64,000 bases of DNA from an uncultured delta proteobacterium (lineage in GTDB: Bacteria; Desulfobacterota; Binatia; UBA9968): the NCBI GenBank assembly GCA_963816145.1, contig CAWFJP010000017.1, positions 32,001-96,000 on the forward strand, read 5' to 3'. A program made the translations under genes and the position numbers. Under the pieces are notes generated by a model. That model was not told the origin of the DNA and ran no database searches. It saw nothing but the letters and a program-made list of their open reading frames with translations. Of the stretch, positions 2 through 59,173 are shown piece after piece (the first letter of the stretch is position 1; the number at the start of each line of letters is the position of its first letter).

Positions 2-133
2 ACGACCATTCCCGGTTCGCCGGCGTACGTGGCCAAGGCGACGAAATACAAGATGAATAACCCTGCGCTCGGGCAAAACATCGACCTCAAGGATCATAAC
101 GCGATTCAGGGAAAATTCATTTTCCAGAGCTAG
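2..133 (+). CDS. C-terminal end of probable DUF1326 family protein (truncated by window edge)
   Basis: Frame 2 reads TTIPGSPAYVAKATKY...HNAIQGKFIFQS* with TAG at 131-133. It lies directly upstream of a DUF2182 gene, the usual partner. Confidence 0.65.
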   Translation, partial: TTIPGSPAYVAKATKYKMNNPALGQNIDLKDHNAIQGKFIFQS

Positions 134-171
134 GTTCCCGCGCCAGGAGTAAGACAAACGCATTCGGCGGA

Positions 172-936
172 TTGATGGCCGACCGTAGAGCTTTTTTAGG
201 GTTGATGGCTTCGCTGGTTGGCCTAGCGTGGTGCGCTCTGTGGATCTGGGATCGGTCGCCGTACGGCCGCTACCTCGGGCACCAAGAAATCGGCAAGATC
301 GATGCCGGCTATCTCCTGCTCCCGATAACGCTCTACCTGATCGGTTGGACACTGATGACAGTGGCCATGATGTTGCCGACGGCGCTGCCGCTGCTCGAAA
401 TCTTCCGTCGCTTGACTGCGCAGCGCCAAAATCAGTTTCAGCTATTGGCCCTGGTGATCACGGGGTATCTGGGGGTCTGGCTGAGCTTCGGTATTTTTGC
501 CCACGGCGCCGATTGGTTGCTGCACGAAATCGTCGAGCGCAGTTCCTGGCTCGAAGCGAACGCCTGGCTTATCGGCGCGGGCACGCTGATCCTCGCCGGC
601 GGTTTTCAGTTTAGCCGCTTGAAATACCGCTGTCTGGACAAGTGCCGCGCGCCCTTGAGTTTCGTCACCGAGTACTGGCGCGGCCGCCATGAGCGGCGCA
701 ACGCATTTTTGCTGGGCATCCATCACGGCCTATTTTGCGTCGGCTGCTGCTGGGCGTTGATGCTTTTGATGTTCGCCGTAGGGGTCGGCAATGTCGCCTG
801 GATGTTGGTACTCGGGGCATTGATGGCCGCGGAAAAGAACCTGCCGTGGGGCCGCAAACTCAGCGCGCCGATGGGCGTCGCTCTGCTCGGGTGGGGCGGG
901 ATTATTTTGCTCAACCGTTTGGTTCTTCCGGGTTGA
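172..936 (+). CDS. DUF2182 predicted metal-binding integral membrane protein
   Basis: Motifs W.LM..AMMLP, Q.S.LK..CL..CR.P and G.FCVGCCWALMLLMF; multiple TM segments. Confidence 0.88.
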   Translation: MMADRRAFLGLMASLVGLAWCALWIWDRSPYGRYLGHQEIGKIDAGYLLLPITLYLIGWTLMTVAMMLPTALPLLEIFRRLTAQRQNQFQLLALVITGYLGVWLSFGIFAHGADWLLHEIVERSSWLEANAWLIGAGTLILAGGFQFSRLKYRCLDKCRAPLSFVTEYWRGRHERRNAFLLGIHHGLFCVGCCWALMLLMFAVGVGNVAWMLVLGALMAAEKNLPWGRKLSAPMGVALLGWGGIILLNRLVLPG

Positions 937-1187
937 CTGTGACGAAGTTTTCACCCCGCGAGAACTACGGTTGCAAGGCCGCAGCAAACTAAGAAAGTAC
1001 CCATTCACCAGGAAGGACACGAAGAGCACGAAGTTCGAAGTTTGTAATCATCCGAAACCTAGGTGTCCTTAGCGCGTTTCGTGGTGAATCAAGCAAACTG
1101 AAGTGGGCGTATTACCTGCACAAGAGCCTAGATAAACCATCATTGTTGACTGCGCCACAAGCAAAATCCAGTGCGACGTTGGCCGAC

Positions 1188-35232: not shown

Positions 35233-35670
35233 GTGCGCTTGATCACAATCGATTCGAGCGTTTTTGTCAGCGCAGCGCGGCAAGGCGAGGTCGGCAACGC
35301 CGAGAGCGTTCGTTTCTTGAGTTGGGTACGAAGGTTTCGCCCGCGTTTATTCTTGCCGACGCTGGTGATTGCAGAAGTCGCCGCCGCGCTTAGCCGAACG
35401 GGCAGTGCCGCCGGGCCGGCCCAGCAATATGCGCTGGCAATCGGGCAGCTGCCCCATACGGTTATGGTGGCCTTAGATGAAGGTTTGGCCCGTCAAGCGG
35501 CTGAGCTCGCCGCACGGCACAAGCTGCGCGGAGTGGATTCGGTGTTTCTGGCTTCGGCTGCTTTGTTTGCTGCTGAGTTGGTAACTTTGGATCGCCTGCA
35601 ACTGGAGCGCGGCTCAGCCATAGTGCCAACCCTTTCTCCGGCCGACTTCCTCATGTCCGACAAGTCGTGA
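35233..35670 (+). CDS. vapC: PIN-domain VapC-family toxin
   Basis: IDSSVF, AEV, LRGVDS..LA.A, LVTLD; coupled to the antitoxin. Confidence 0.88.
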   Translation: MRLITIDSSVFVSAARQGEVGNAESVRFLSWVRRFRPRLFLPTLVIAEVAAALSRTGSAAGPAQQYALAIGQLPHTVMVALDEGLARQAAELAARHKLRGVDSVFLASAALFAAELVTLDRLQLERGSAIVPTLSPADFLMSDKS

Positions 35671-39868: not shown

Positions 39869-41392
39869 TCAGACCTTGTTCTTGGCGGGGGTCTCGGATC
39901 CGGCCGGCTTCCGCGACCGCGTCGACGCGCGCGCTGGGGGCTTCTTCGGGATCGCCTTTCGCGGCACACGCGCTGCCACAGGCGCGGCGGCCGCGACGCG
40001 GGCGCGCGGACGTCTTGGCTTGGTACGACCGGGGGGCTCGGCGGTCGTGTCGGTCGGCATCGGCTCGTCATTGAACCGATCCTCCTCGGCCCGCTCTTCC
40101 AGCTCGAATCGGTCGACAGCGTCGACGGGTTGCGTATCCAGCATGCCTAGGCGCCCGGCTTCCATCACTTCTTGGGATGGGGCGATTGCGGGCGACGGGC
40201 CGGTCTGCTGCAACGCCGGCCCCTTAAGCACGCGCAGGCCGCCTCGACGATCCCGCTCGAGTCGCACGAGGCCCTCGCGCTGACACGCGCGCAACAGATC
40301 GATCAGCCCCATGAAACCGTATCGGCGCTCGTCGAAGCCGCCCCGGGTGGCTCGTAAGAGCTGCTTGACGTTGCGCAAGTACATCGGCCACCGTGCCGCT
40401 GTAGCAGCGGTCAGGATCTGGCCCACCAGACGGACCCCGTCAGCCTGATCGCCCTTCGGGACGACGGGTGCCTCGATCGGGGCGAGCTGAGACACCTCCT
40501 CCACGGCCTCGGCCAACACCGCCCGCGGCTCGGTCTCTGCCTCGGGCGCAGCCGCGCGACCCTCGTCGCGCGTCTCTGCGACGGCGACGGGCCGGCTCGC
40601 CACGACCGCGGTCGAAGACTCGCTCTCGTCGAACTTCTCGTTGAGCTCGACCATGACGCTTCGACCGGTGTGCTTGAGCTGGGCGAGACCCGATTGCGCG
40701 AGCTTCTCGACGAAATCGAGGAATGACGACGCACCATAAGTCCGCTCGGAGAAAGTCGAGTCGAGCTGGAGCAGCGTGCTCTTGAGCAGGCCGATCTGCG
40801 GCGAGACTTCCCGCTCGGACAGAATTTTCAGCGCGCGTCGCACGATGGGGAAGGCCTGCGCGATGGGCGCGGTGGCGGCGGACGTCACCGGGCGGTCGCC
40901 CTTGGCGACCGAGCGGCGGCCGCGCGTCAGGTTCTCATAGGCGATGAACTCGTGGCAGTTGCGCTGGAGGATGGTGCTGGTGAACGCCCTGCCACCGACG
41001 ACGAAAACTTTCTTGTCGTATTGCTTGAGCTTCTCGACCAGCGAGAGGAAGTCGCTGTCGCCGCCAACGATCACGTACGCGTTGATATGCGGGTGCGTGA
41101 AGGCCATTTCGAGGGCATCGAGCGCCAGATTGATGTCGGCGCCGTTCTTGTCGCCGCCGGGCGTCAAGTTGCGCTGCACCAGGCGGATGGCGTGTTGGGT
41201 GAGGTGGCGACTGTACTCGCCCGCGCGCGTCCAGTCGGCGTAAGCGATCTTGGTGACCACCTCGCCGCGCTCCTTCAAGGCGTCGAGGATGGCGCCGACG
41301 TCGAAATTCTCACCAAGCGTCGATTTGACGCCAATCTCGATGTTGTCGAAGTCGATGAACACAGCGATGTTAAGACGGTCCTGATGGGGCAA
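39869..41392 (-). CDS. NYN (LabA/DUF88) domain protein with two LOTUS/OST-HTH domains
   Basis: VFIDFDN, KNGADINLALDA, GGDSDF; DSTFSERTYG.SSF and GFDERRYGF; basic low-complexity tail; TTG start. Confidence 0.88.
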   Translation of the reverse strand: MPHQDRLNIAVFIDFDNIEIGVKSTLGENFDVGAILDALKERGEVVTKIAYADWTRAGEYSRHLTQHAIRLVQRNLTPGGDKNGADINLALDALEMAFTHPHINAYVIVGGDSDFLSLVEKLKQYDKKVFVVGGRAFTSTILQRNCHEFIAYENLTRGRRSVAKGDRPVTSAATAPIAQAFPIVRRALKILSEREVSPQIGLLKSTLLQLDSTFSERTYGASSFLDFVEKLAQSGLAQLKHTGRSVMVELNEKFDESESSTAVVASRPVAVAETRDEGRAAAPEAETEPRAVLAEAVEEVSQLAPIEAPVVPKGDQADGVRLVGQILTAATAARWPMYLRNVKQLLRATRGGFDERRYGFMGLIDLLRACQREGLVRLERDRRGGLRVLKGPALQQTGPSPAIAPSQEVMEAGRLGMLDTQPVDAVDRFELEERAEEDRFNDEPMPTDTTAEPPGRTKPRRPRARVAAAAPVAARVPRKAIPKKPPARASTRSRKPAGSETPAKNKV

Positions 41393-42257: not shown

Positions 42258-42548
42258 ATGCGGATCGTCGCAAAGAAGACTCTGCGCGAATTTTGGGAGC
42301 GCTGTCCGGACGCTGAAGATCCCCTCTTGGCGTGGTTTCGCGAAGTTGAAAAGGAAGATTGGAGCAAGCCGTCGCAGGTAAAAGATAAATATAGAAGTGC
42401 AAGTTTTGTCGGGGATCGCATTGTGTTCAATATCAAAGGAAATGATTACAGGCTCGTTGTGAAAATAAATTATCCGTACCGGGTTGTTTATGTGCGTTTC
42501 ATCGGCACGCATAAAGAATACGATGAGATCGACGTTGAGGAGGTGTGA
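42258..42548 (+). CDS. higB: HigB mRNA interferase toxin
   Basis: MRIVAKKTLREFW...W..P...VFNIKGNDYRLVV.I.Y...YVRFIGTHKEYD.ID. Confidence 0.93.
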   Translation: MRIVAKKTLREFWERCPDAEDPLLAWFREVEKEDWSKPSQVKDKYRSASFVGDRIVFNIKGNDYRLVVKINYPYRVVYVRFIGTHKEYDEIDVEEV

Positions 42549-42549
42549 G

Positions 42550-43776
42550 ATGAACAATATTCGAGCAATTCGAAGCGAAGCAGATTACGACGCCGCGCTC
42601 GCGCGTATCGATGCCCTTATGGACGCCGAGAGTGGTACCCCCGAGGGCGAAGAACTCGACGTGCTTACTGACCTTGTTGAACTTTATGAGGCGAAGCATG
42701 TTCCCATGGGTTTTCCGAGGCCGCTTGAAGCAATCCGCTTTCGCATGGAGCAGGCAGACCTTTCACCACGTGATCTTGTTCCGTTCATGGGCAGCCGTGC
42801 AAAAGTCTCCGAGGTGTTGTCCGGCAAGCGCCCACTCACCATGCAGATGGCTCGCGCCCTGCACGCCAATCTCGGCATTCCCGCTGATGTGCTGTTACAG
42901 CAACCGGGTGGTGAGTTGCATTCGGCGCTTGAAGGTACCGAGTGGCACCGCTTTCCATTGGCGGAAATGGCAAAACGTGGATGGATCGAAAAGCGTCGCA
43001 ATCTTGACACTCTTGCCGAAGAAATCATGCGGGATCTGATTGGTCGGGCGGGAGGCGAATATGTTTTGCCTGCAGCGTTCTTTCGGAAGAATGATCACGC
43101 CCGCATCAACGCGAAAACGGACCCATACTCTCTCAAAGTTTGGTGCTGGGAAGTGCTAGCGCGAGCGAATGCCCATAAGCTGCCTGTCAGCTTTAAACCC
43201 GGCACGGTCGATCTCACTTTTCTGCGGAAAGTGGCCACATTGAGCTGGTCGCAAGACGGTCCCCGACTCGCCCAAGAGTTCCTCGCTAACCACGGTATTC
43301 ATCTCGTGTATCTTGAGCATTTACCGCGTACGCACCTCGACGGCGCGGCTCTTCAACTCGCCGACGGCACACCCGTTATTGGACTGACCTTGCGCTACGA
43401 TCGGCTCGACAACTTCTGGTTCTGCTTGCTGCACGAACTTTCTCATATCGGCCGCCATATGAACGAGACGAAGAATGAAGCGTTCGTCGATGATCTGAGT
43501 CTTCGTGACGTGCAAGGCGCGCGACGTGATCCACGAGAAACCGAAGCGGATGAGTGGGCCGAGAATGGTCTCATTCCAGAAGACATATGGAATACGAGCA
43601 AGGTAAAGGACAAGCCAACGCCGCTGGCCGTTATGGAACTAGCCCAGCGGCTCGGCATTCACCCCGCCATCATTGCCGGTCGCATCCGCCACGAGACACG
43701 GAACTTTCGCCTGCTGTCCCATTTTGTGGGGACAGGCACGCTACGAAAACAGTTTCTTAAAGGCGGAGAGCAATGA
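42550..43776 (+). CDS. HigA antitoxin fused to ImmA/IrrE-type Zn metallopeptidase
   Basis: N-terminal HigA (DYDAAL..., EAIRFRMEQ, VSEVLSGKRPLT); C-terminal LDGAA, LRYDRLDNFWF.LLHELSH (HExxH), E.EAD.WA. Confidence 0.88.
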   Translation: MNNIRAIRSEADYDAALARIDALMDAESGTPEGEELDVLTDLVELYEAKHVPMGFPRPLEAIRFRMEQADLSPRDLVPFMGSRAKVSEVLSGKRPLTMQMARALHANLGIPADVLLQQPGGELHSALEGTEWHRFPLAEMAKRGWIEKRRNLDTLAEEIMRDLIGRAGGEYVLPAAFFRKNDHARINAKTDPYSLKVWCWEVLARANAHKLPVSFKPGTVDLTFLRKVATLSWSQDGPRLAQEFLANHGIHLVYLEHLPRTHLDGAALQLADGTPVIGLTLRYDRLDNFWFCLLHELSHIGRHMNETKNEAFVDDLSLRDVQGARRDPRETEADEWAENGLIPEDIWNTSKVKDKPTPLAVMELAQRLGIHPAIIAGRIRHETRNFRLLSHFVGTGTLRKQFLKGGEQ

Positions 43777-43952
43777 TTTTTTAGCTCCAACATCACAATG
43801 TACGATGTTAAAACATGGCTAATCTTGAGGGGCGTGAGAGACGCAAGTATCGAACGAAGGACTCGACGTGCGCAGAGTTATCTAGAGTTGTAGGATCGAC
43901 TTGAAAGCTAAAGGCGGACCTGAACTCATTTTTGACTGTGGAGGAAGAAGAC

Positions 43953-45509
43953 ATGGCTACACGCACATGGGACAAAGACCGAGCCTCGAAGCGCATCGAT
44001 GCACGCATCGCGGAGCTTCCGATCGGCGACATTGAAATCAAGAAGTTCGTACGCGAGACGGACTTGACCAGTCTCCCGCGGAACGTGGCGTACCGCCTTC
44101 ACGGCGTCCACCTCTATGCCGACATTCTCAATCTGGCGGACATGCTTCACGTAACCGAGGTGGAAGGCGAGACTTGCCACCGGCGGACGCTCCGATTTCT
44201 GAACCTGCATTACCGAGCCGTCCATCGGACGCTTCAGCGGGTGGACGCCATCTTTGTTGACTTTCACAACCAGCGCCTGCACTCCGTGATCGCGAAGCCG
44301 TACGACTCGGAGGTCGATCGCATTCACAAGGCCGTCGCCGTGGCGCAGTTGATCATCGACGTGCTCGCGCAGACCGGCGAGGACGCGGACCATCCTGCCG
44401 CGAAGGTCAGAGTTGGGATCGACACCGGTGAAGCCCTCGCTGTGAACAATGGACGCCGAGGCCATCGGGAACCCCTGTTTCTGGGGGAGCCAGCGAATCA
44501 CGCTGCCAAGCGCGCGTCAGGCGGGAAAGGGACGGGGATCTATCTGACGAGCAAAGCCCGGGAGACGCTCGGTCTGAAGCGCGTTGATAACGAAGATGCA
44601 ACGGCGCTCACAACCGAAGAAATCGCGGCGTCGCAAGACGAGGCTGCTCTGGATGTCACGGCCGACGATATCGTGAAGGAATGGCGCGAGGATCTCAAGA
44701 ATAGCCCAATCGGCGCATTCGGCTTCAGCGGCCATACGCCGCCCTTCAGGACGCTCGACATCGAAGAACTGTCAGTAAAGAACTCGCGGCGTCAGGATGC
44801 GGCTACGGTCTATTCCGATATCGACGGCTTCACCGCCTACGTCACCAAGAACATCACCACTGACACCGCTTCGAAGCATGTCGTGCGCGCGCTCCACGTT
44901 CTGCGCAGTGAACTGGACGCTGTGCTTCACACCGACTTCGCCGGCCGCAAGGTGCGGTTTATCGGGGACTGTGTTCATGGGCTGCTGGTGGAAGGTACGG
45001 CGCAGACGTCGGATGCGATCGAAACAATCAGCAACATGACTCTGTGCGCCGGAGGCATGCGCAGCAGCTTCGAGCTCGCGCTGTCAAAGCTGAAAGCCAA
45101 TGGCACCGACGCGTCAGAGCTCGGGTTGGCAATCGGGTTCGAGTACGGGCCAATGAACGTGACCCGGCTTGGCATCAAGAGCGAGCTCGTGCGCTGCTCG
45201 GCGAGCCGAGGTGTTGTTGCCGCCGAACGAGAACAATCCCGCTGCTCGGGGACGGAGACGGCGATCGGGCCCATTGCGTACGATAGTAGCAATGATGCGG
45301 CGCGCACCGCGTTTGGGAAATCGCGGAAGCGATCCGGGCTGACCTACGACGTCGCTGTCAACGAGCTGGCCGACAAGGGCGATGCGGTCGCGAAGGCTGC
45401 CCGTGCCATGGGGACGGCCGGGTCGCTGAAACCCGCGACTTCGGCACCTTCCGCTTTCAGCTTCCCGAATCGACCGACGGGTCCCGCGAAGCCGGACGGT
45501 TTCGCATGA
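43953..45509 (+). CDS. Tandem class III nucleotide cyclase, Pycsar PycC-like
   Basis: Domain 1 YADILN...RVGIDTG...LGEPANHAAK; domain 2 YSDIDGFT...RFIGDC...IGFEYG; GGAGGA RBS; operon context. Confidence 0.85.
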   Translation: MATRTWDKDRASKRIDARIAELPIGDIEIKKFVRETDLTSLPRNVAYRLHGVHLYADILNLADMLHVTEVEGETCHRRTLRFLNLHYRAVHRTLQRVDAIFVDFHNQRLHSVIAKPYDSEVDRIHKAVAVAQLIIDVLAQTGEDADHPAAKVRVGIDTGEALAVNNGRRGHREPLFLGEPANHAAKRASGGKGTGIYLTSKARETLGLKRVDNEDATALTTEEIAASQDEAALDVTADDIVKEWREDLKNSPIGAFGFSGHTPPFRTLDIEELSVKNSRRQDAATVYSDIDGFTAYVTKNITTDTASKHVVRALHVLRSELDAVLHTDFAGRKVRFIGDCVHGLLVEGTAQTSDAIETISNMTLCAGGMRSSFELALSKLKANGTDASELGLAIGFEYGPMNVTRLGIKSELVRCSASRGVVAAEREQSRCSGTETAIGPIAYDSSNDAARTAFGKSRKRSGLTYDVAVNELADKGDAVAKAARAMGTAGSLKPATSAPSAFSFPNRPTGPAKPDGFA

Positions 45510-47293
45510 TCTGGTACTTCCAAGACAGCGCGCGCAGCAAACGGGAGCGGGAGGCGATCGAACGGCTCGCATCGCAGGTTCCCTGGATGACACCGCGTGG
45601 GCTCAGGATCGACGGCTCGTTGCGTCTGATCTGGGACATTGATATCTCGACTGGCGAGCGTACATACCCGGTGTCCTTGCGGTACCCGAACCACTTTCCG
45701 TACTCCCCGCCCGTGGTGCTGCCGCGCGGGGACTCGGACCGATGGTCGTCACATCAGTATGGGCCAGGCGGTGAATTGTGCCTCGAGTACGGTCCGGACA
45801 ACTGGCATCCGGAGATCACCGGCGCCGACATGGTCGTGAGTGCCTTTCGACTCTTGCAAGGCGAAAGCCCGACCAGCGAGGAGACCGCTGTCGCCTCTCG
45901 TCACAAGATCACGCTCGGGCAGTACGTCCGAAACAGGTTTTCGAGATTCGTGATCACGCGGGCTGCGGTCGAACTCTTCGCGACTCTCGACGAGGGTGTA
46001 GCAGTCTTGGGCAAGGCGGTAGGCGCCTTGCGCGAAGAGTCGTGGGTCACCGCTATCAGTTCTGTCTCACTGCCTAGCGGTGAGACTTGGATCGAGCCGG
46101 AGATGCCAGAGCCATTTCGCACTGAAGGATGGGAACGGGATATCGCCGGCTTCAAGTGGCCGGAGGACGTTCGGCTACCGTCAGCGAAGACCCCGGCCGA
46201 CTTGCGCGCAGTGACCGCCGAGCGCGGCTTGGCGATTCCAAAGGTGTCACACGTCCTGCTCTTTCAGGGATCGAGCGTACACGTTTATGGCCTCGGCGAT
46301 GAGGACGGCCAGGTTTGGCGCCCAGTTGTAATTATGCCTCCCCCTCCATCGACACGGCTCGACACCGATCATGCGGTTCTAGCGGAGCGAAAAATCGGCG
46401 TTGTCGGATGCGGGTCCATGGGCAGCAAGATTGCCGTGATATTGGCCCGTTCTGGAGCGAAGAGATTTTTCCTGGTCGACGATGACATCATGCTGCCTGA
46501 CAATCTCGTGCGCCACGACTTGGATTGGCGGGAGATCGGAACTCATAAAGCCGACGGCGTTGCCCGCCGAATTCAGCTCGTCAATCCTGGAGCGATTTGC
46601 GAAAAGCGCCGGCATCGTCTGGGCGGACAGGAATCCAGCGGAAGCGTCGAGACCCTAATTGAGAGTCTCGCCGAGTGCGACATGCTAATCGATGCAACCG
46701 CAAATCCGATCGCTTTCAATTATTTGTGCGCGGCTGTCGCGGTCGCCAAGACGACCCTCGTCTGGGCCGAGGTGTTCGGCGGGGGCTTTGGTGGACTCAT
46801 AGCTCGCCACCGTCCTGGCCATGAACCTGATCCGGCCTCGATGCGCCGGACCATCGAGGCCTGGTGCGCTGATCAAGGCAAGCCGATCCCTCGATCGACG
46901 ACCGATTATGGCGGCGCAGAAGAAGCGGCTCTGATCGCCGACGACGCAGACGTGACTACAATTGCGGCACATGCCGCGCGGCTTGCGATCGACACACTCA
47001 TCTCACGGACGCCCTCAACTTTTCCGCACTCGGTTTACCTTGTCGGCCTCGCAAAGCAGTGGATATTCGACGCACCATTTGACACATATCCCATAGACGT
47101 TGGGCAACCGATGACCTCCGAGGCATCGACACCAGCGAATTCTGAAGAAAGGGCCGCTGAAGTTGCGAGGATCGTCCAGTTGCTAGCGGATCACCAGGAT
47201 GCAGGTACTTTTGCCGGCTCAGATAACCAAACGGATACGGGAGGAACTCCGACGAGCCAAGACTCAGGAGATCGGGGGGCTGCTGATGGGTGA
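45506..47293 (+). CDS. E2-E1(ThiF) fusion, Cap2-like ubiquitin-like conjugation enzyme
   Basis: E2: YP..FPYSPP.V, HQY...ELCL (C92). ThiF: GVVGCGSMGS, DDD, NLVRH, K. ATGA overlap with the cyclase. Confidence 0.88.
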   Translation: MIWYFQDSARSKREREAIERLASQVPWMTPRGLRIDGSLRLIWDIDISTGERTYPVSLRYPNHFPYSPPVVLPRGDSDRWSSHQYGPGGELCLEYGPDNWHPEITGADMVVSAFRLLQGESPTSEETAVASRHKITLGQYVRNRFSRFVITRAAVELFATLDEGVAVLGKAVGALREESWVTAISSVSLPSGETWIEPEMPEPFRTEGWERDIAGFKWPEDVRLPSAKTPADLRAVTAERGLAIPKVSHVLLFQGSSVHVYGLGDEDGQVWRPVVIMPPPPSTRLDTDHAVLAERKIGVVGCGSMGSKIAVILARSGAKRFFLVDDDIMLPDNLVRHDLDWREIGTHKADGVARRIQLVNPGAICEKRRHRLGGQESSGSVETLIESLAECDMLIDATANPIAFNYLCAAVAVAKTTLVWAEVFGGGFGGLIARHRPGHEPDPASMRRTIEAWCADQGKPIPRSTTDYGGAEEAALIADDADVTTIAAHAARLAIDTLISRTPSTFPHSVYLVGLAKQWIFDAPFDTYPIDVGQPMTSEASTPANSEERAAEVARIVQLLADHQDAGTFAGSDNQTDTGGTPTSQDSGDRGAADG

Positions 47294-47714
47294 GCACGTC
47301 TGTGACGAGCTGTTCCGAGTCGTCGATATTTCGGTTCAGCGGTCGGGAGGATCGCAGGTCCATTTCGTACGCGACGCGTCCAGCCATGCCACTCAGCTGC
47401 AGGCGTTCTTTGCGCGTACGGGCAATGATTTCACGCGCTTCAATTACCTCGGCGAGTGGCATTCGCATCCGACGTTTGCGCCGGCTCCCAGTTCGACCGA
47501 CTTCGATTCCATGCAATCGATCGTCGACAATCCGGACGTTGGTGTGAATTTTTTGATACTCCTAGTGTTCAAGCTGGCTAGCCGAAAGAGACTGGCAGGA
47601 ACCGCAACAGTGTTCAGGCCGCATCAGCCATGGACGAGTGTGGTTGTTATGACCGAAGAGAACGGAACGGGCTCGCGTCTTGAGCGCGCGCTGCCTTCGT
47701 GGCTGCGAGGATAG
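47199..47714 (+). CDS. JAB/MPN metalloprotease, Cap3-like
   Basis: E24(IGG)...YLGEWHSHP...PSSTD, the JAMM motif. Confidence 0.92.
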   Translation: MQVLLPAQITKRIREELRRAKTQEIGGLLMGEHVCDELFRVVDISVQRSGGSQVHFVRDASSHATQLQAFFARTGNDFTRFNYLGEWHSHPTFAPAPSSTDFDSMQSIVDNPDVGVNFLILLVFKLASRKRLAGTATVFRPHQPWTSVVVMTEENGTGSRLERALPSWLRG

Positions 47715-47846: not shown

Positions 47847-48755
47847 ATGAAAGAGCGTTTTGAGGGTGGCACCGGCCGCGGGTTGCTTCTCGATGTACTT
47901 CAGAAGCAGGACATCGTCCGAAACGACAAGTCGCTCGCCGAAGCGCTTGCCGAGGGAGGAGAGATCGTTCAATTCGACGGCGGCGCGGACATCGTTCGAC
48001 AGGACGGCGCTGACAACGATGTCTTCTTCTTGCTCGCCGGCGATGCGAACGTGCTGGTTAACGATCGCTTTGTCGGGACGCGGACGGAAGGGACGTGTAT
48101 CGGCGAGATGGCCGCTCTCGATGCCGCCGCGCGGCGTTCCTCGACCGTTCGCGCAAATTCGGTTGTCGTGGCGTTGAAGGTTCCGGAACCGGCTTTTCGG
48201 GCAGCGTGTGAGGCGCATCCCCTTGTGTTCAAGGCTCTCTCCCAGCTCGTCTCTCATCGTCTGAGACAACGTTCAGCGTTCGTTCAGCCGCCGAATCCAC
48301 AGCCAGTGCTCTTCATCGGCAGTTCCACTGAGGCACTTTCAATCGCGAACGAATTGCAGGCTGGTTTCAAGTACGACAAGTTCAACGCGATTATCTGGAA
48401 GGACGGAGTGTTCGGGCCCGGCGGCGTCGCCTTTGATTCCCTCGCGCAGATTGCCGGCGGCTCAGATTTTGCCGCCTTCATCATTTCGCCAGACGACACA
48501 GTCATCAGCCGCGAGGCAGAGAAACTGGCCCCTCGTGACAATGTGATCTTCGAGCTTGGCCTCTTCATGGGCGTGCTCGACCGACAGCGCGTCTTCTTGA
48601 TTCGCGAGCACGATGCCGATGTGAAGATTCCTTCGGACCTGCTCGGCATTACACAGGTGACCTACGTCCTGAAGAAGGGCGGCGACCTCACGACGGCGCT
48701 CGGTCCCGTATGCACTGAGCTGCGCAAAGCAATCGCCACGCACGGCGTTCGCTGA
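47847..48755 (+). CDS. cNMP-binding domain + TIR-like effector (PycTIR-like)
   Basis: CNB: RQDG, GEMAAL...RSSTVRA. TIR: LFIGSSTE, DFA.F...PDD, PRDNVIFELGLFMG, PSDL.G. Confidence 0.92.
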   Translation: MKERFEGGTGRGLLLDVLQKQDIVRNDKSLAEALAEGGEIVQFDGGADIVRQDGADNDVFFLLAGDANVLVNDRFVGTRTEGTCIGEMAALDAAARRSSTVRANSVVVALKVPEPAFRAACEAHPLVFKALSQLVSHRLRQRSAFVQPPNPQPVLFIGSSTEALSIANELQAGFKYDKFNAIIWKDGVFGPGGVAFDSLAQIAGGSDFAAFIISPDDTVISREAEKLAPRDNVIFELGLFMGVLDRQRVFLIREHDADVKIPSDLLGITQVTYVLKKGGDLTTALGPVCTELRKAIATHGVR

Positions 48756-57099: not shown

Positions 57100-57852
57100 A
57101 TGCAATCAAGAACCATCGGGGCTGCCGGCGGGGAATCTCAGGATTTAAGTCGGCGCACTTTTCTCAGGCTGACCAGCGGCGCGGCGCTGACCGGAGTTTT
57201 TGGCGTGAACTTGTCCGCAAGCTTGGTCTACGCCGACGCGTTGGGCAAAGAAAAACGCGACAAGATGACGCCGGATGAGATCCTGGCGGCGTTCAAGCGC
57301 GGCAACAAGAATTTCAGCAAAGGCCTCAAGACCTCGCGCAACTATCTCAGCGAACAGAAAGCCACCGCCAAAGGACAGTATCCGTTGGCGGTCGTCCTGA
57401 GCTGCATCGACTCGCGCGCGCCTGCCGAAACGATCATGGATCTCGGCATCGGCGATATCTTCAACGCCCGCGTCGCCGGCAACATCGCCAACGACGACAT
57501 CCTGGGCAGCATGGAATTTTCCTGCAAGCTGGCGGGGGCGAAAGTCGTCCTGGTGATGGGGCACAGCGCTTGCGGTGCGATCAAGGGTGCCATCGATAAC
57601 GCCGAGCTGGGCAACCTGACCGGTCTGCTCGCGAAGATCAAACCGGCGGTGAAAGCGACCCAATTCAAAGGCGAATTATCTGCGAAGAACGCCGCCTACG
57701 TCGACGCCGTGGCGCAAAAAAACGTCGAGTTGACGATCGCCGACATTCGCAAGAGGAGTCCGGTACTGGCAGAGCTTGAGTCCAAAGGCACGATCAAGAT
57801 CGCCGGGGCGATGTACAACCTCGAAACCGCGATGTTGAACTTTCTCGCCTGA
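57100..57852 (+). CDS. Beta-class carbonic anhydrase, Tat-exported
   Basis: SRRTFL, SCIDSR, RVAGN, GHSACGA. Confidence 0.95.
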   Translation: MQSRTIGAAGGESQDLSRRTFLRLTSGAALTGVFGVNLSASLVYADALGKEKRDKMTPDEILAAFKRGNKNFSKGLKTSRNYLSEQKATAKGQYPLAVVLSCIDSRAPAETIMDLGIGDIFNARVAGNIANDDILGSMEFSCKLAGAKVVLVMGHSACGAIKGAIDNAELGNLTGLLAKIKPAVKATQFKGELSAKNAAYVDAVAQKNVELTIADIRKRSPVLAELESKGTIKIAGAMYNLETAMLNFLA

Positions 57853-57922: not shown

Positions 57923-59173
57923 CTAGCCGGCTTGATTCCCGGCCACTTGGTCAGTTGCGAACGCGAACGCCGTGACGGGCTCGTTAAGGCCTTTCAACGG
58001 ATAGGATCCGACATCTTCCAGCTTGCTTTCGCAGCCCGCCCTTTCGACGAAGGCCTTGGAAAATAGCACCGATCGTTTGAGCGCCTTGGTCAAGGCTTCG
58101 AGCCGCGACGCGATATTGACCGCCGGCCCGATCACCGTAAAGTCGAGGCGATTGCGCGATCCGATATTGCCATACATGACCTCGCCGACATGCACGCCGA
58201 TGCCGTAGCCCAATGCATCGCGCCCCGCCAAAAGGTTTTGCTCGTTTAACCTTGCTAGTGCCGTTTGCGCTTCGCCGATCGCTCGCAATAGATCGCCGCA
58301 GGCAGTCGGATTGCTCAGAGGAAATATCGCCAGAAGGCCGTCGCCCATGAACTTCAGGATCTCGCCGCCGTTGCGCACAATCGGCTCCGTCATCGCGTCG
58401 AAGTAGCCGTTTAGAATATCGATGACTTCATCCCGCGGCCGAAGGTTTGACAAGGCGGTGAAGTTGCGCAGATCGCAGATAATAATCGCGGCATCGACCG
58501 TCGCGCCGCTGCCGCGGGTGGTGGCGCCGTCAAGGATTTTTTCGCTGGCATGGGGGCCGACATAGGTTTCCAAGAGAGTCCGGGCAAGCTGGTTTTTCAA
58601 GCGAATTTCGCTGACCAGAGCAAGAACGGGGAGAATCTCGGCGAGGACCGCGACGTGATCGTCGTCGAATCCGCCCGCTGCCTCGGTTGCGAAAGTAACC
58701 AGATGGCGCTTGCCCAGTGTATGGTCGAGAGGCCAGGCGATGTAGTCGGTAAGCCCCTCGGCGCGCAGCTCCTCGCACAGCGGATGACTCAAGATTTCCA
58801 CTGCGCCGCTTTGCAGCCGCTGCCTGATCTCATTGGCGCCTTCGATGATCGTCCGCAGCGGGCTCTTCAAGAACTCCGCGGTCGCCTCGACGTGATAGCC
58901 GACGGTTTGTATTTCAGCGGCGTGCATGCCGCTGCGCCAAATGATCCGGGCGCCGAGCCATTGAGGATGATGGGTGCGAAAGTGCAGGCTCGCCCTGGCC
59001 ACCGGCACGCCGGCAACTCTCAGCCGGCGGCACAGTTCGACAAAGATCTTGTCGATAACCGGTTCATCGTGGGTTCCCGACATCAGCCAATCGAGAATCT
59101 GCCCGCCCCGAACCTGCGAAGCGCGAGATTTTTCATCAAGGGAAGCGCTGTGGTTATCCAACGAGAATTCCAT
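57923..59173 (-). CDS. Class III adenylate cyclase with N-terminal GAF-like domain
   Basis: CDLRNFT, LKFMGDG, GNIGS..RLDFTVIGPAVN.ASRLE (K/T adenine pair). Confidence 0.92.
   Translation of the reverse strand: MEFSLDNHSASLDEKSRASQVRGGQILDWLMSGTHDEPVIDKIFVELCRRLRVAGVPVARASLHFRTHHPQWLGARIIWRSGMHAAEIQTVGYHVEATAEFLKSPLRTIIEGANEIRQRLQSGAVEILSHPLCEELRAEGLTDYIAWPLDHTLGKRHLVTFATEAAGGFDDDHVAVLAEILPVLALVSEIRLKNQLARTLLETYVGPHASEKILDGATTRGSGATVDAAIIICDLRNFTALSNLRPRDEVIDILNGYFDAMTEPIVRNGGEILKFMGDGLLAIFPLSNPTACGDLLRAIGEAQTALARLNEQNLLAGRDALGYGIGVHVGEVMYGNIGSRNRLDFTVIGPAVNIASRLEALTKALKRSVLFSKAFVERAGCESKLEDVGSYPLKGLNEPVTAFAFATDQVAGNQAG

Follow-up and report, generated by a model that had tools for sequence, protein, structure and literature searches.

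A predicted clade A two-domain Pycsar cyclase with one composite active site in a putative Type II Pycsar operon of an uncultured delta proteobacterium

Cyclases of clade A of Pycsar, a pyrimidine cyclase system for resisting phages, are described as having "two consecutive nucleotide cyclase domains", and clades A-D are reported to make cyclic uridine monophosphate (cUMP) (PMC11224242). The two-domain protein PaPycC of Pseudomonas aeruginosa is reported to produce cUMP (PMC11224242 and PMC12489823, both citing Tal et al. 2021), and the second of these sources gives its product as "cUMP only" (PMC12489823). Operons that join such enzymes to conjugation genes have also been described: the Corbett lab names "Type II Pycsar" as one of several pathways that rely on a fused E2-E1 protein to conjugate a signalling enzyme (10.1101/2024.11.21.623953), and a preprint of the Patel and Aravind groups describes a subclade, "Pycsar-like-4", that is recognised by its E2, E1, and JAB neighbours (10.64898/2026.08.12.744502). 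Here, we analysed a window of 64,000 nucleotides from an uncultured delta proteobacterium (assembly GCA_963816145.1, contig CAWFJP010000017.1, positions 32,001 to 96,000 of the forward strand), in which a gene, referred to as pycC, is predicted to encode a 518-aa two-domain Pycsar cyclase of clade A (43953..45509, + strand; PADLOC PycC model, PDB 6yii_A, and Foldseek). Taking the evidence together, we consider it highly probable that pycC is a clade A PycC with one active site, likely to convert uridine triphosphate (UTP) to cUMP, in a Type II Pycsar operon with a PycTIR effector. The enzyme is not of a new kind, as its architecture, its structure (6YII), and its operon type have all been published before. 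The structural reading in an earlier note on this DNA, made from the sequence alone, is right, but it arrives a second time at what was known from the 6YII structure and from the Pycsar papers.

The start of pycC was placed at the ATG at 43953 because its homologues are mostly 516-520 aa long (120 homologues listed) and a Shine-Dalgarno-like GGAGGA (43940..43945, + strand, by reading of the sequence) lies 7 nt ahead of this ATG; the 525-aa frame that begins at TTG 43932 in the list of open reading frames (ORFs) was set aside. When compared to defence-system profiles, the protein matched the PADLOC PycC model PDLC00762 (E 3.1e-215, residues 11-499 on positions 3-489 of a profile of 508) and also PDLC02366 (E 5.4e-207). 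A phmmer search gave 6yii_A, the PaPycC of P. aeruginosa, at E 1.8e-175, a match at the level of orthology, and the class III cyclase domain PF00211 of Pfam was likewise recognised in the whole protein. The PycC family is large: 1529 of 8000 candidates scored matched at E <= 1e-3, and, at 50% clustering, 464 representatives were counted, of which 165 had E <= 1e-30. By its sequence, pycC is thus assigned to the clade A Pycsar cyclases, an already described family.

The AlphaFold2 model of the protein, built from a 70-row alignment, had a mean predicted local distance difference test score (pLDDT) of 92.2 and a predicted template modelling score (pTM) of 0.89. It showed the same order of strands and helices repeated twice, followed by a tail that is unstructured from about residue 490. 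The two cyclase domains were delimited with PF00211, the secondary structure of the model, the alignment, and conservation: domain 1, which is C2-like, spans approximately residues 40-215 (44070..44597, + strand), and domain 2, which is C1-like, approximately residues 276-445 (44778..45287, + strand). Searched alone, domain 1 and domain 2 matched PF00211 with 23.6 and 28.8 bits, respectively (cut-off 21.9). A BLASTP comparison of domain 1 with domain 2 gave no significant similarity (E 0.69), and the duplication is detectable through profiles and fold only.

Regarding the fold, the best Foldseek match was 6YII (E 2.1e-67, template modelling (TM) score 0.88 by query and 0.96 by target, root-mean-square deviation 1.4 Å, 56% identity), followed by the single-chain C1-C2 adenylyl cyclases (ACs) AC9 and soluble AC, with TM scores of about 0.5-0.55, and by a third tier of single-domain cyclases that includes the Burkholderia cepacia cUMP synthase 7R65. 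The model and these matches bear out the reading of a single-chain pseudo-heterodimer, as well as the reversal of the domain order relative to mammalian C1-C2, since the domain bearing the Asn and Lys comes first. Mammalian membrane and soluble ACs share with pycC the single chain with one catalytic and one degenerate site, whereas they differ in the order of the domains, in their base residues (Lys/Asp in place of the Asp/Leu of the window), and in sequence, the identity being 10-17%.

To place the active site, both halves of pycC were aligned with 48 single-domain PycC cyclases from the fetched loci, and the L081 locus cyclase served as the bridge for transferring the residue numbering of BcPycC (7r65). 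In domain 1, Y55-A-D57 aligned with Y50-A-D52 of BcPycC, and H105-N106-Q107-R108 aligned with D94-G-D96-R97, so the second metal Asp of this domain is a Gln (Q107); N182-x3-K186 fell on the N-x3-K of the single-domain enzymes. Domain 2 has both Asps at its metal positions, Y287-S-D289 and I337-G-D339-C340, and is devoid of the Asn..Lys/Arg motif, with V421 and E425 at the expected Asn and Lys positions. The class III catalytic set, i.e., two metal Asps and the Asn-x3-Lys pair, is complete and divided between both domains. These alignments agree with the earlier note, which had read one composite active site from a domain 1 without the second metal Asp and a domain 2 without the N..R motif; its residue numbers all hold (VDFHNQR at 102-108, N182, K186, D289, D339, and SRGVVAAERE at 418-427).

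Conservation of these positions was examined in 130 distinct two-domain relatives with roughly 25-96% identity, a set composed of the window protein, 64 representatives at 50% clustering, and the translated loci, from which duplicates and rows of <450 or >560 aa were removed. D289, D339, G338, N182, and G178 were present in 130/130 sequences, and Y55 (129/130), R108 (127/130), F176 (127/130), K186 (125/130), L175 (119/130), and D103 (117/130) were also kept. What remains of the metal site in domain 1 is variable, D57 being present in 82/130 sequences and Q107 in 68/130. Because the catalytic residues are kept in the relatives and their mirror positions are lost or drifting, the asymmetry of the two domains is a conserved property of the family, far beyond chance. 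The window protein differs from the 80% family consensus at S288 and S410 only.

In class III cyclases, the base-selecting positions are a Lys located four residues ahead of metal Asp 2 and an Asp or Thr located seven residues ahead of the Asn. By this canonical spacing, the corresponding residues of pycC are D103 and L175 in domain 1, a pair that differs from both the Lys/Asp(Thr) used for adenosine triphosphate (ATP) and the Glu/Cys used for guanosine triphosphate and that the earlier note had already taken as non-purine. The contrast it drew with an ordinary cyclase elsewhere in the window (57926-59173, - strand) stands too, as that protein has an adenylate-type Lys..Thr and an N-x3-R. In BcPycC, UTP recognition is attributed to Y50, D94, and R97 (PMC11224242), and two of these three residues have counterparts in domain 1 of pycC, namely Y55 and R108. 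The predicted pyrimidine product also agrees with the cUMP reported for PaPycC.

When compared to PaPycC, pycC has the same two consecutive class III domains in one chain, a PycTIR effector as partner, and the same motifs (Y-A-D, V-D-F-H-x-Q-R, P-L-F-L-G-x-P-A-N-H-A-A-K, Y-A/S-D-I-D-G-F, and V-R-F-I-G-D-C). The two differ in sequence (57% identity by tblastn to the matching Pseudomonas loci), and the pocket residues in the 6YII alignment are those of the window protein except at position 106, which is Asn in the window and Ser in 6YII. Their C-termini also differ: that of PaPycC appears to resemble those of Pseudomonas loci with an E2-only gene, whereas the window combines a ...GFA tail with E2-E1 and JAB genes. 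BcPycC (7R65), a clade B cUMP synthase, shares the catalytic chemistry, the N-x3-K, and the Tyr and Arg of the pocket (Y50/R97, corresponding to Y55/R108). In contrast to pycC, it is a homodimer of about 230 aa with two symmetric sites, has D94 where the window protein has His105, and is devoid of a Cap2/Cap3 partner.

The genes downstream of pycC place it in an operon of PycC, Cap2-like E2-E1, Cap3 JAB, and cyclic nucleotide-binding TIR protein, which by its annotated genes corresponds to the published Type II Pycsar layout. The cap2-like gene (45506..47293, + strand; PADLOC, Pfam, and PDB) overlaps the pycC stop with its own start (ATGA) and is predicted to encode a 595-aa E2-E1 fusion. It matched the PADLOC E1-E2 model PDLC00855 (E 7.3e-197) and the Pfam domains ThiF (2.7e-18) and UQ_con (0.0027), and over its E1 region only it matched the PDB Cap2 chains 7tsq and 7to3 (E 4.5e-6 to 2.2e-5). 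Invariant residues in 30 sequences comprised C92 in L-C-L-E, G301-x-G303-x-x-G306-x-K308, R336, and D392. The cap3-like gene (47199..47714, + strand; PADLOC and Pfam) is predicted to encode a 171-aa JAB/JAMM peptidase that matched the PADLOC JAB model PDLC00893 (E 2.8e-62) and Pfam Prok-JAB (6.2e-12). Its JAMM site is intact, with E32, H88-x-H90, S98, and D101 invariant in 29 sequences. The first 95 nt of cap3 (47199-47293 of the window) are shared, in a different reading frame, with the end of cap2, and an overlap of similar size was found in related loci, for instance in L001 (9247 vs 9338).

The last gene of the operon, pycTIR (47847..48755, + strand; Pfam, PADLOC, and PDB), is predicted to encode a 302-aa protein with an N-terminal domain that binds cyclic nucleoside monophosphates (cNMPs) and a C-terminal CAP12/Pycsar TIR domain of the NADase type. 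It matched PF10137 (4.8e-29), PF00027 (1.2e-9), and the PADLOC PycTIR model (4.4e-94), and among the PycTIR structures in PDB it matched 8jsj (1.3e-41) and 8jsk (7.8e-22, gapless alignment). A cyclase followed by an effector of this type is also found in Pucsar, the cGMP branch described with PucC and PucTIR (10.64898/2026.08.12.744502). In the same preprint, an Arg of PfPucTIR stacks on the base (R136, window R138) and a second Arg (R140) corresponds to window R142. PucC, in contrast, is a single-domain homodimer described there as having no restrictive Tyr50/Asp94/Arg97 pocket, whereas the window protein has two domains and keeps the Tyr and the Arg.

The C-terminus of pycC connects the cyclase with these conjugation genes. 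Its disordered tail (residues 490-518, 45420..45506, + strand; pLDDT and tail comparison) has a pLDDT of about 46-51, ends in ...PAKPDGFA, and is presumed to be the handle for Cap2. For comparison, 80 genome loci of relatives with 35-96% identity were fetched from Acidobacteriota, Alpha-, Beta-, and Gammaproteobacteria, and Nitrospirota. A tblastn search with the window PycTIR gave a match in 68/80 of them, a few of these being partial or distant from PycC, and a Cap2 match was present in 32/80, 30 of which also had Cap3. The tails were compared in the 71/80 loci with a full-length, uninterrupted PycC, leaving out nine that were truncated, cut by the contig end, or interrupted. All 29 Cap2-linked proteins ended in GF[AS] (28 GFA and one GFS), as opposed to 0/42 of those without a Cap2 match, a lineage pattern rather than 71 independent trials because the loci are related to each other. 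Among the closest database homologues, the tail was GFA in 117 and GYA in 3 of the 120 listed. A predicted complex of Cap2 with PycC residues 262-518 gave scores of 0.00 and 0.00 and is uninformative either way.

This GF[A/S] rule parallels the C-terminus rule of type II CBASS (an antiphage signalling system based on cyclic oligonucleotides), in which a Gly or Ala at the end of the CD-NTase is reported to be confined to operons that carry Cap2 and Cap3 (PMC10097602) and its disordered tail enters the E1 site (10.1101/2022.03.31.486616). In both systems, an E2-E1 fusion and a JAB peptidase adjoin the signalling enzyme, a disordered tail ending in Gly or Ala is conserved only together with Cap2 and Cap3, and the effector TIR is of the CAP12 type. 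They differ in that the CD-NTase has a Pol-beta fold and makes cyclic oligonucleotides, whereas the window enzyme is a class III cyclase expected to make a cyclic mononucleotide, and in that the window Cap2 is remote from the solved Cap2 structures (E of about 1e-5 to 1e-6, E1 region only). The Cap2 and Cap3 genes, together with the conserved ...GFA tail, are the main regulatory feature of the locus, and they were absent from the earlier note.

Loci without a Cap2 match also carried conjugation genes. An ORF of at least 120 aa began at or near the PycC stop in 32/42 of them, and the 14 that were scanned, out of these 32, all had an E2-family gene right after PycC: 13 encoded an E2-only protein (PDLC00868 or PDLC00875) and one a different E1-E2 fusion. 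Genes of this kind abutting the PycC stop include those of L025 (7524-8357) and L042 (7539-8309), along with those of 12 other loci. Since all 14 encode an E2-family protein, a "type I" class for the loci without a tblastn match to the window Cap2 was ruled out, and the gene order suggests that the two-domain PycC clade is generally tied to conjugation machinery. PycC proteins in loci devoid of Cap2 often end in a ...VRPY or ...RPH motif (28/42). The loci devoid of Cap2 include the Pseudomonas loci L042-44, in which an E2-only gene comes after a PycC that ends in ...QVQPHSRQKVDGSR. The C-terminus of these proteins continues the sequence where the 6YII alignment stops.

Metagenome loci provided further arrangements. 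L089 and L093 bear a more distant two-domain PycC, 28-29% identical to that of the window and best matched by the PADLOC model PDLC00765, downstream of which lie, in this order, an E2-only gene and a cNMP-binding TIR effector whose residue 143 is Ser or Thr. L090 has an E2-only gene and a Ser-type effector, with no cyclase on the contig.

Building on the observed architecture, residues, conservation, fold, operon, and link between tail and Cap2, we infer the following course for the product, the conjugation, the trigger, and the defence activity. The two diverged class III domains of one chain would come together as the subunits of a cyclase dimer do, giving one catalytic site, to which domain 2 would supply the metal-binding Asps D289 and D339. 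Domain 1 would contribute N182 and K186, the pair for the ribose and the transition state, along with a base pocket composed of D103, H105, R108, L175, and possibly Y55. Upon phage infection, pycC would most likely convert UTP to 3',5'-cUMP, which would bind the cNMP-binding domain of the downstream PycTIR, and the TIR domain would then deplete NAD+ and abort the infection. By analogy with type II CBASS, the E2-E1 protein may adenylate the disordered C-terminus (...GFA) and conjugate PycC to a target, thereby priming the cyclase, and the JAB peptidase may reverse or trim this conjugation.

Several observations weigh against this interpretation. The third uracil residue of BcPycC, D94, is His105 in the window protein. 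PaPycC, the relative that has been characterised, shares just 56% identity with the window protein and is probably of the E2-only subtype, given that the 6YII alignment ends in the same way as the PycC of L042-44, loci in which the accompanying gene is E2-only. The literature search found no assay of the window PycC or of any Cap2-linked PycC, and no report of PycC conjugation or of ubiquitin-like priming of a class III cyclase. In Enterobacter cloacae Cap2, C548 is the E1 catalytic Cys (10.1101/2022.03.31.486616), and the sole candidate for this function in the window protein, C454, is a Cys in 22/30 sequences, with Ser, Phe, Trp, or Thr in the others. The 80 loci being mutually related, the split of 29 vs 42 in the tail comparison does not amount to 71 independent events. 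Regarding the signal, Asn is found at position 143 in 66/68 effectors beside a two-domain PycC, Ser143 occurring only in the window effector and in that of L001, the nearest relative of the window. The Asn of PsPycTIR (N143) hydrogen-bonds N3 and O4 of uracil, its N143S mutant no longer responds to cUMP, and CRP reads adenine with a Ser (S128) at the equivalent position (PMC11224242). In the wider window effector subfamily (116 homologues), position 143 was Ser in 73, Ala in 16, Gly in 7, Glu in 7, Asn in only 6, Thr in 3, Val in 3, and Leu in 1. These residues would fit a system with the same architecture and operon but with cyclic adenosine monophosphate (cAMP) as the signal, in which ATP would be the substrate of the E2-linked two-domain cyclases and Ser143 of the window effector would recognise adenine in the manner of CRP. 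The title under which 6YII was deposited, "adenylyl cyclase-like ATP-binding protein", points the same way, as do the AlphaFold3 ligand scores that favour ATP for the E2-linked Pycsar-like-4 subclade in the preprint (10.64898/2026.08.12.744502), a preference that may only echo the ATP-bound 6YII entry. We nevertheless regard a cAMP signal as improbable, given the cUMP reported for PaPycC, the Asn143 of most effectors beside two-domain PycC, and the replacement of the canonical adenine pair by Asp103/Leu175. Moreover, the metagenome BcPycC-like single-domain cyclases kept Tyr-[Ala/Ser]-Asp and Asp-Gly-Asp-Arg in 48/48 cases, beside effectors with Ser (11), Asn (24), Gly (7), Thr (2), or Glu (1) or with the position unread (3), and all three UTP residues were present at 11/11 of the single-domain Ser-type loci. 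One of these, L081, pairs an effector 90% identical to that of the window (126-1034) with a single-domain cyclase (1054-1758) that matches 7r65 at E 3e-59 and has Y50, D94, and R97 intact, so one effector type is shuffled between cyclase clades. Likewise, PycC proteins that are about 90% identical are paired with an Asn-type effector in L002 and with a Ser-type one in L083 and the window, and no PycC position co-varied with the effector type when the 3 Ser-linked proteins were compared to the 28 other Cap2-linked ones (effectors Asn-type where read). Ser143 is therefore unlikely to mark a nucleotide switch, as no PycC residue co-varies with it and Ser-type effectors occur beside BcPycC-like cyclases. 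The Ser-variant effector most likely still reads the usual signal of the family. On these comparisons, cUMP is the likely product of the window pycC and a purine product improbable.

The function of the degenerate second pocket was weighed alongside the reading of pycC as a cUMP-forming enzyme, with which a regulatory role of this pocket is compatible. The pocket is composed of D57 and Q107 from domain 1 and R335, R414, V421, and E425 from domain 2, and it could be a ligand-binding regulatory site that senses infection, an idea of the earlier note that we hold tentatively and consider on the unlikely side. R335 (117/130), R414 (114/130), E425 (114/130), and Q428 (124/130) are kept although non-catalytic, and the closest folds outside the family, AC9 and soluble AC, have the same single-chain layout. 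Mammalian pseudo-heterodimeric cyclases use their second site for regulators such as forskolin and bicarbonate. The 6YII protein binds ATP by its title. Conversely, the residue conservation is compatible with a purely structural role as well as with a ligand site, the former metal positions D57 and Q107 drift, and the locus already has a dedicated regulatory module in Cap2/Cap3. A broader claim, that two-domain cyclases linked to Cap2/Cap3 may not be simple cUMP synthases, notes that in this lineage the partner effector has Ser and not Asn at its base-reading residue, and would let the pocket lined by R335, R414, E425, and Q428 take up a nucleotide, ATP for example, as an allosteric or infection-sensing input; we find this decidedly doubtful. 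If true, the system would combine covalent Cap2 priming with small-molecule gating, or would signal with a nucleotide other than cUMP. Finally, we give very little credence to pycC being a nucleotide-binding protein without catalysis, or a cyclase with an ordinary role in physiology outside phage defence. Such a role might be read from the first description of 6YII as an ATP-binding protein and from the "transcriptional regulator" label in the PDB sequence file, but it is countered by the catalytic residues kept in the 130 relatives, by the tight linkage of pycC to the TIR effector and E2-family genes in related loci, by the full-length matches to PADLOC defence profiles, and by a sporadic distribution (0/30 relatives).

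Regarding this distribution, pycC is a single-copy gene in a genome of 7.8 Mb, and a search of 30 relatives (18 from its genus and 12 from its order, some with incomplete genomes) did not find it. This distribution fits a mobile defence gene. The operon sits among metabolic genes, after htpG and a NYN-LOTUS gene, and its flanking genes were not common to the other PycC loci, which, together with the outcome in the 30 relatives, speaks for an accessory, island-like gene. The NYN-LOTUS gene, just upstream of the island (39869-41392, - strand; Pfam), encodes a 507-aa protein with a NYN nuclease domain and OST-HTH/LOTUS. Directly upstream of pycC, in a stretch of lower GC (0.513), lies a pair composed of a HigB-like toxin (42258-42548; PD-Lambda-2 A, PADLOC E 1.2e-40) and a HigA-HTH/M78 peptidase fusion (42484-43776; PD-Lambda-2 B, PADLOC E 1.5e-143). 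This pair was considered as a CapH/CapP-like regulator of the operon; it occurred in 0/80 genome loci and 1/80 metagenome loci, and it is regarded as a separate neighbour because it is not linked to PycC elsewhere. Neighbouring defence genes and the sporadic distribution bear on phage protection by the operon in an indirect way. A few kb upstream, a PIN-domain protein (35233-35667, + strand) is VapC-like and possibly the toxin of a toxin-antitoxin pair. On the other side of the operon, the ordinary class III cyclase mentioned above adjoins a beta-carbonic anhydrase gene (57100-57849, + strand), a pairing that might hint at cAMP signalling linked to CO2/bicarbonate.

For annotation purposes, this is a locus to be recorded under Pycsar systems of Type II (Cap2/Cap3-assisted), with its PycC assigned to clade A, and not under adenylate cyclase. 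The rule that a GF[A/S] end occurs only with Cap2/Cap3 provides a testable handle on whether a class III cyclase is subject to ubiquitin-like priming in the way that CD-NTases are. The product of the E2-linked subclade is disputed between the experiment on PaPycC, which gave cUMP, and the claim for ATP from structure prediction, and the natural Asn/Ser variation of the effectors could be used to decide how the base is recognised by these receptors.

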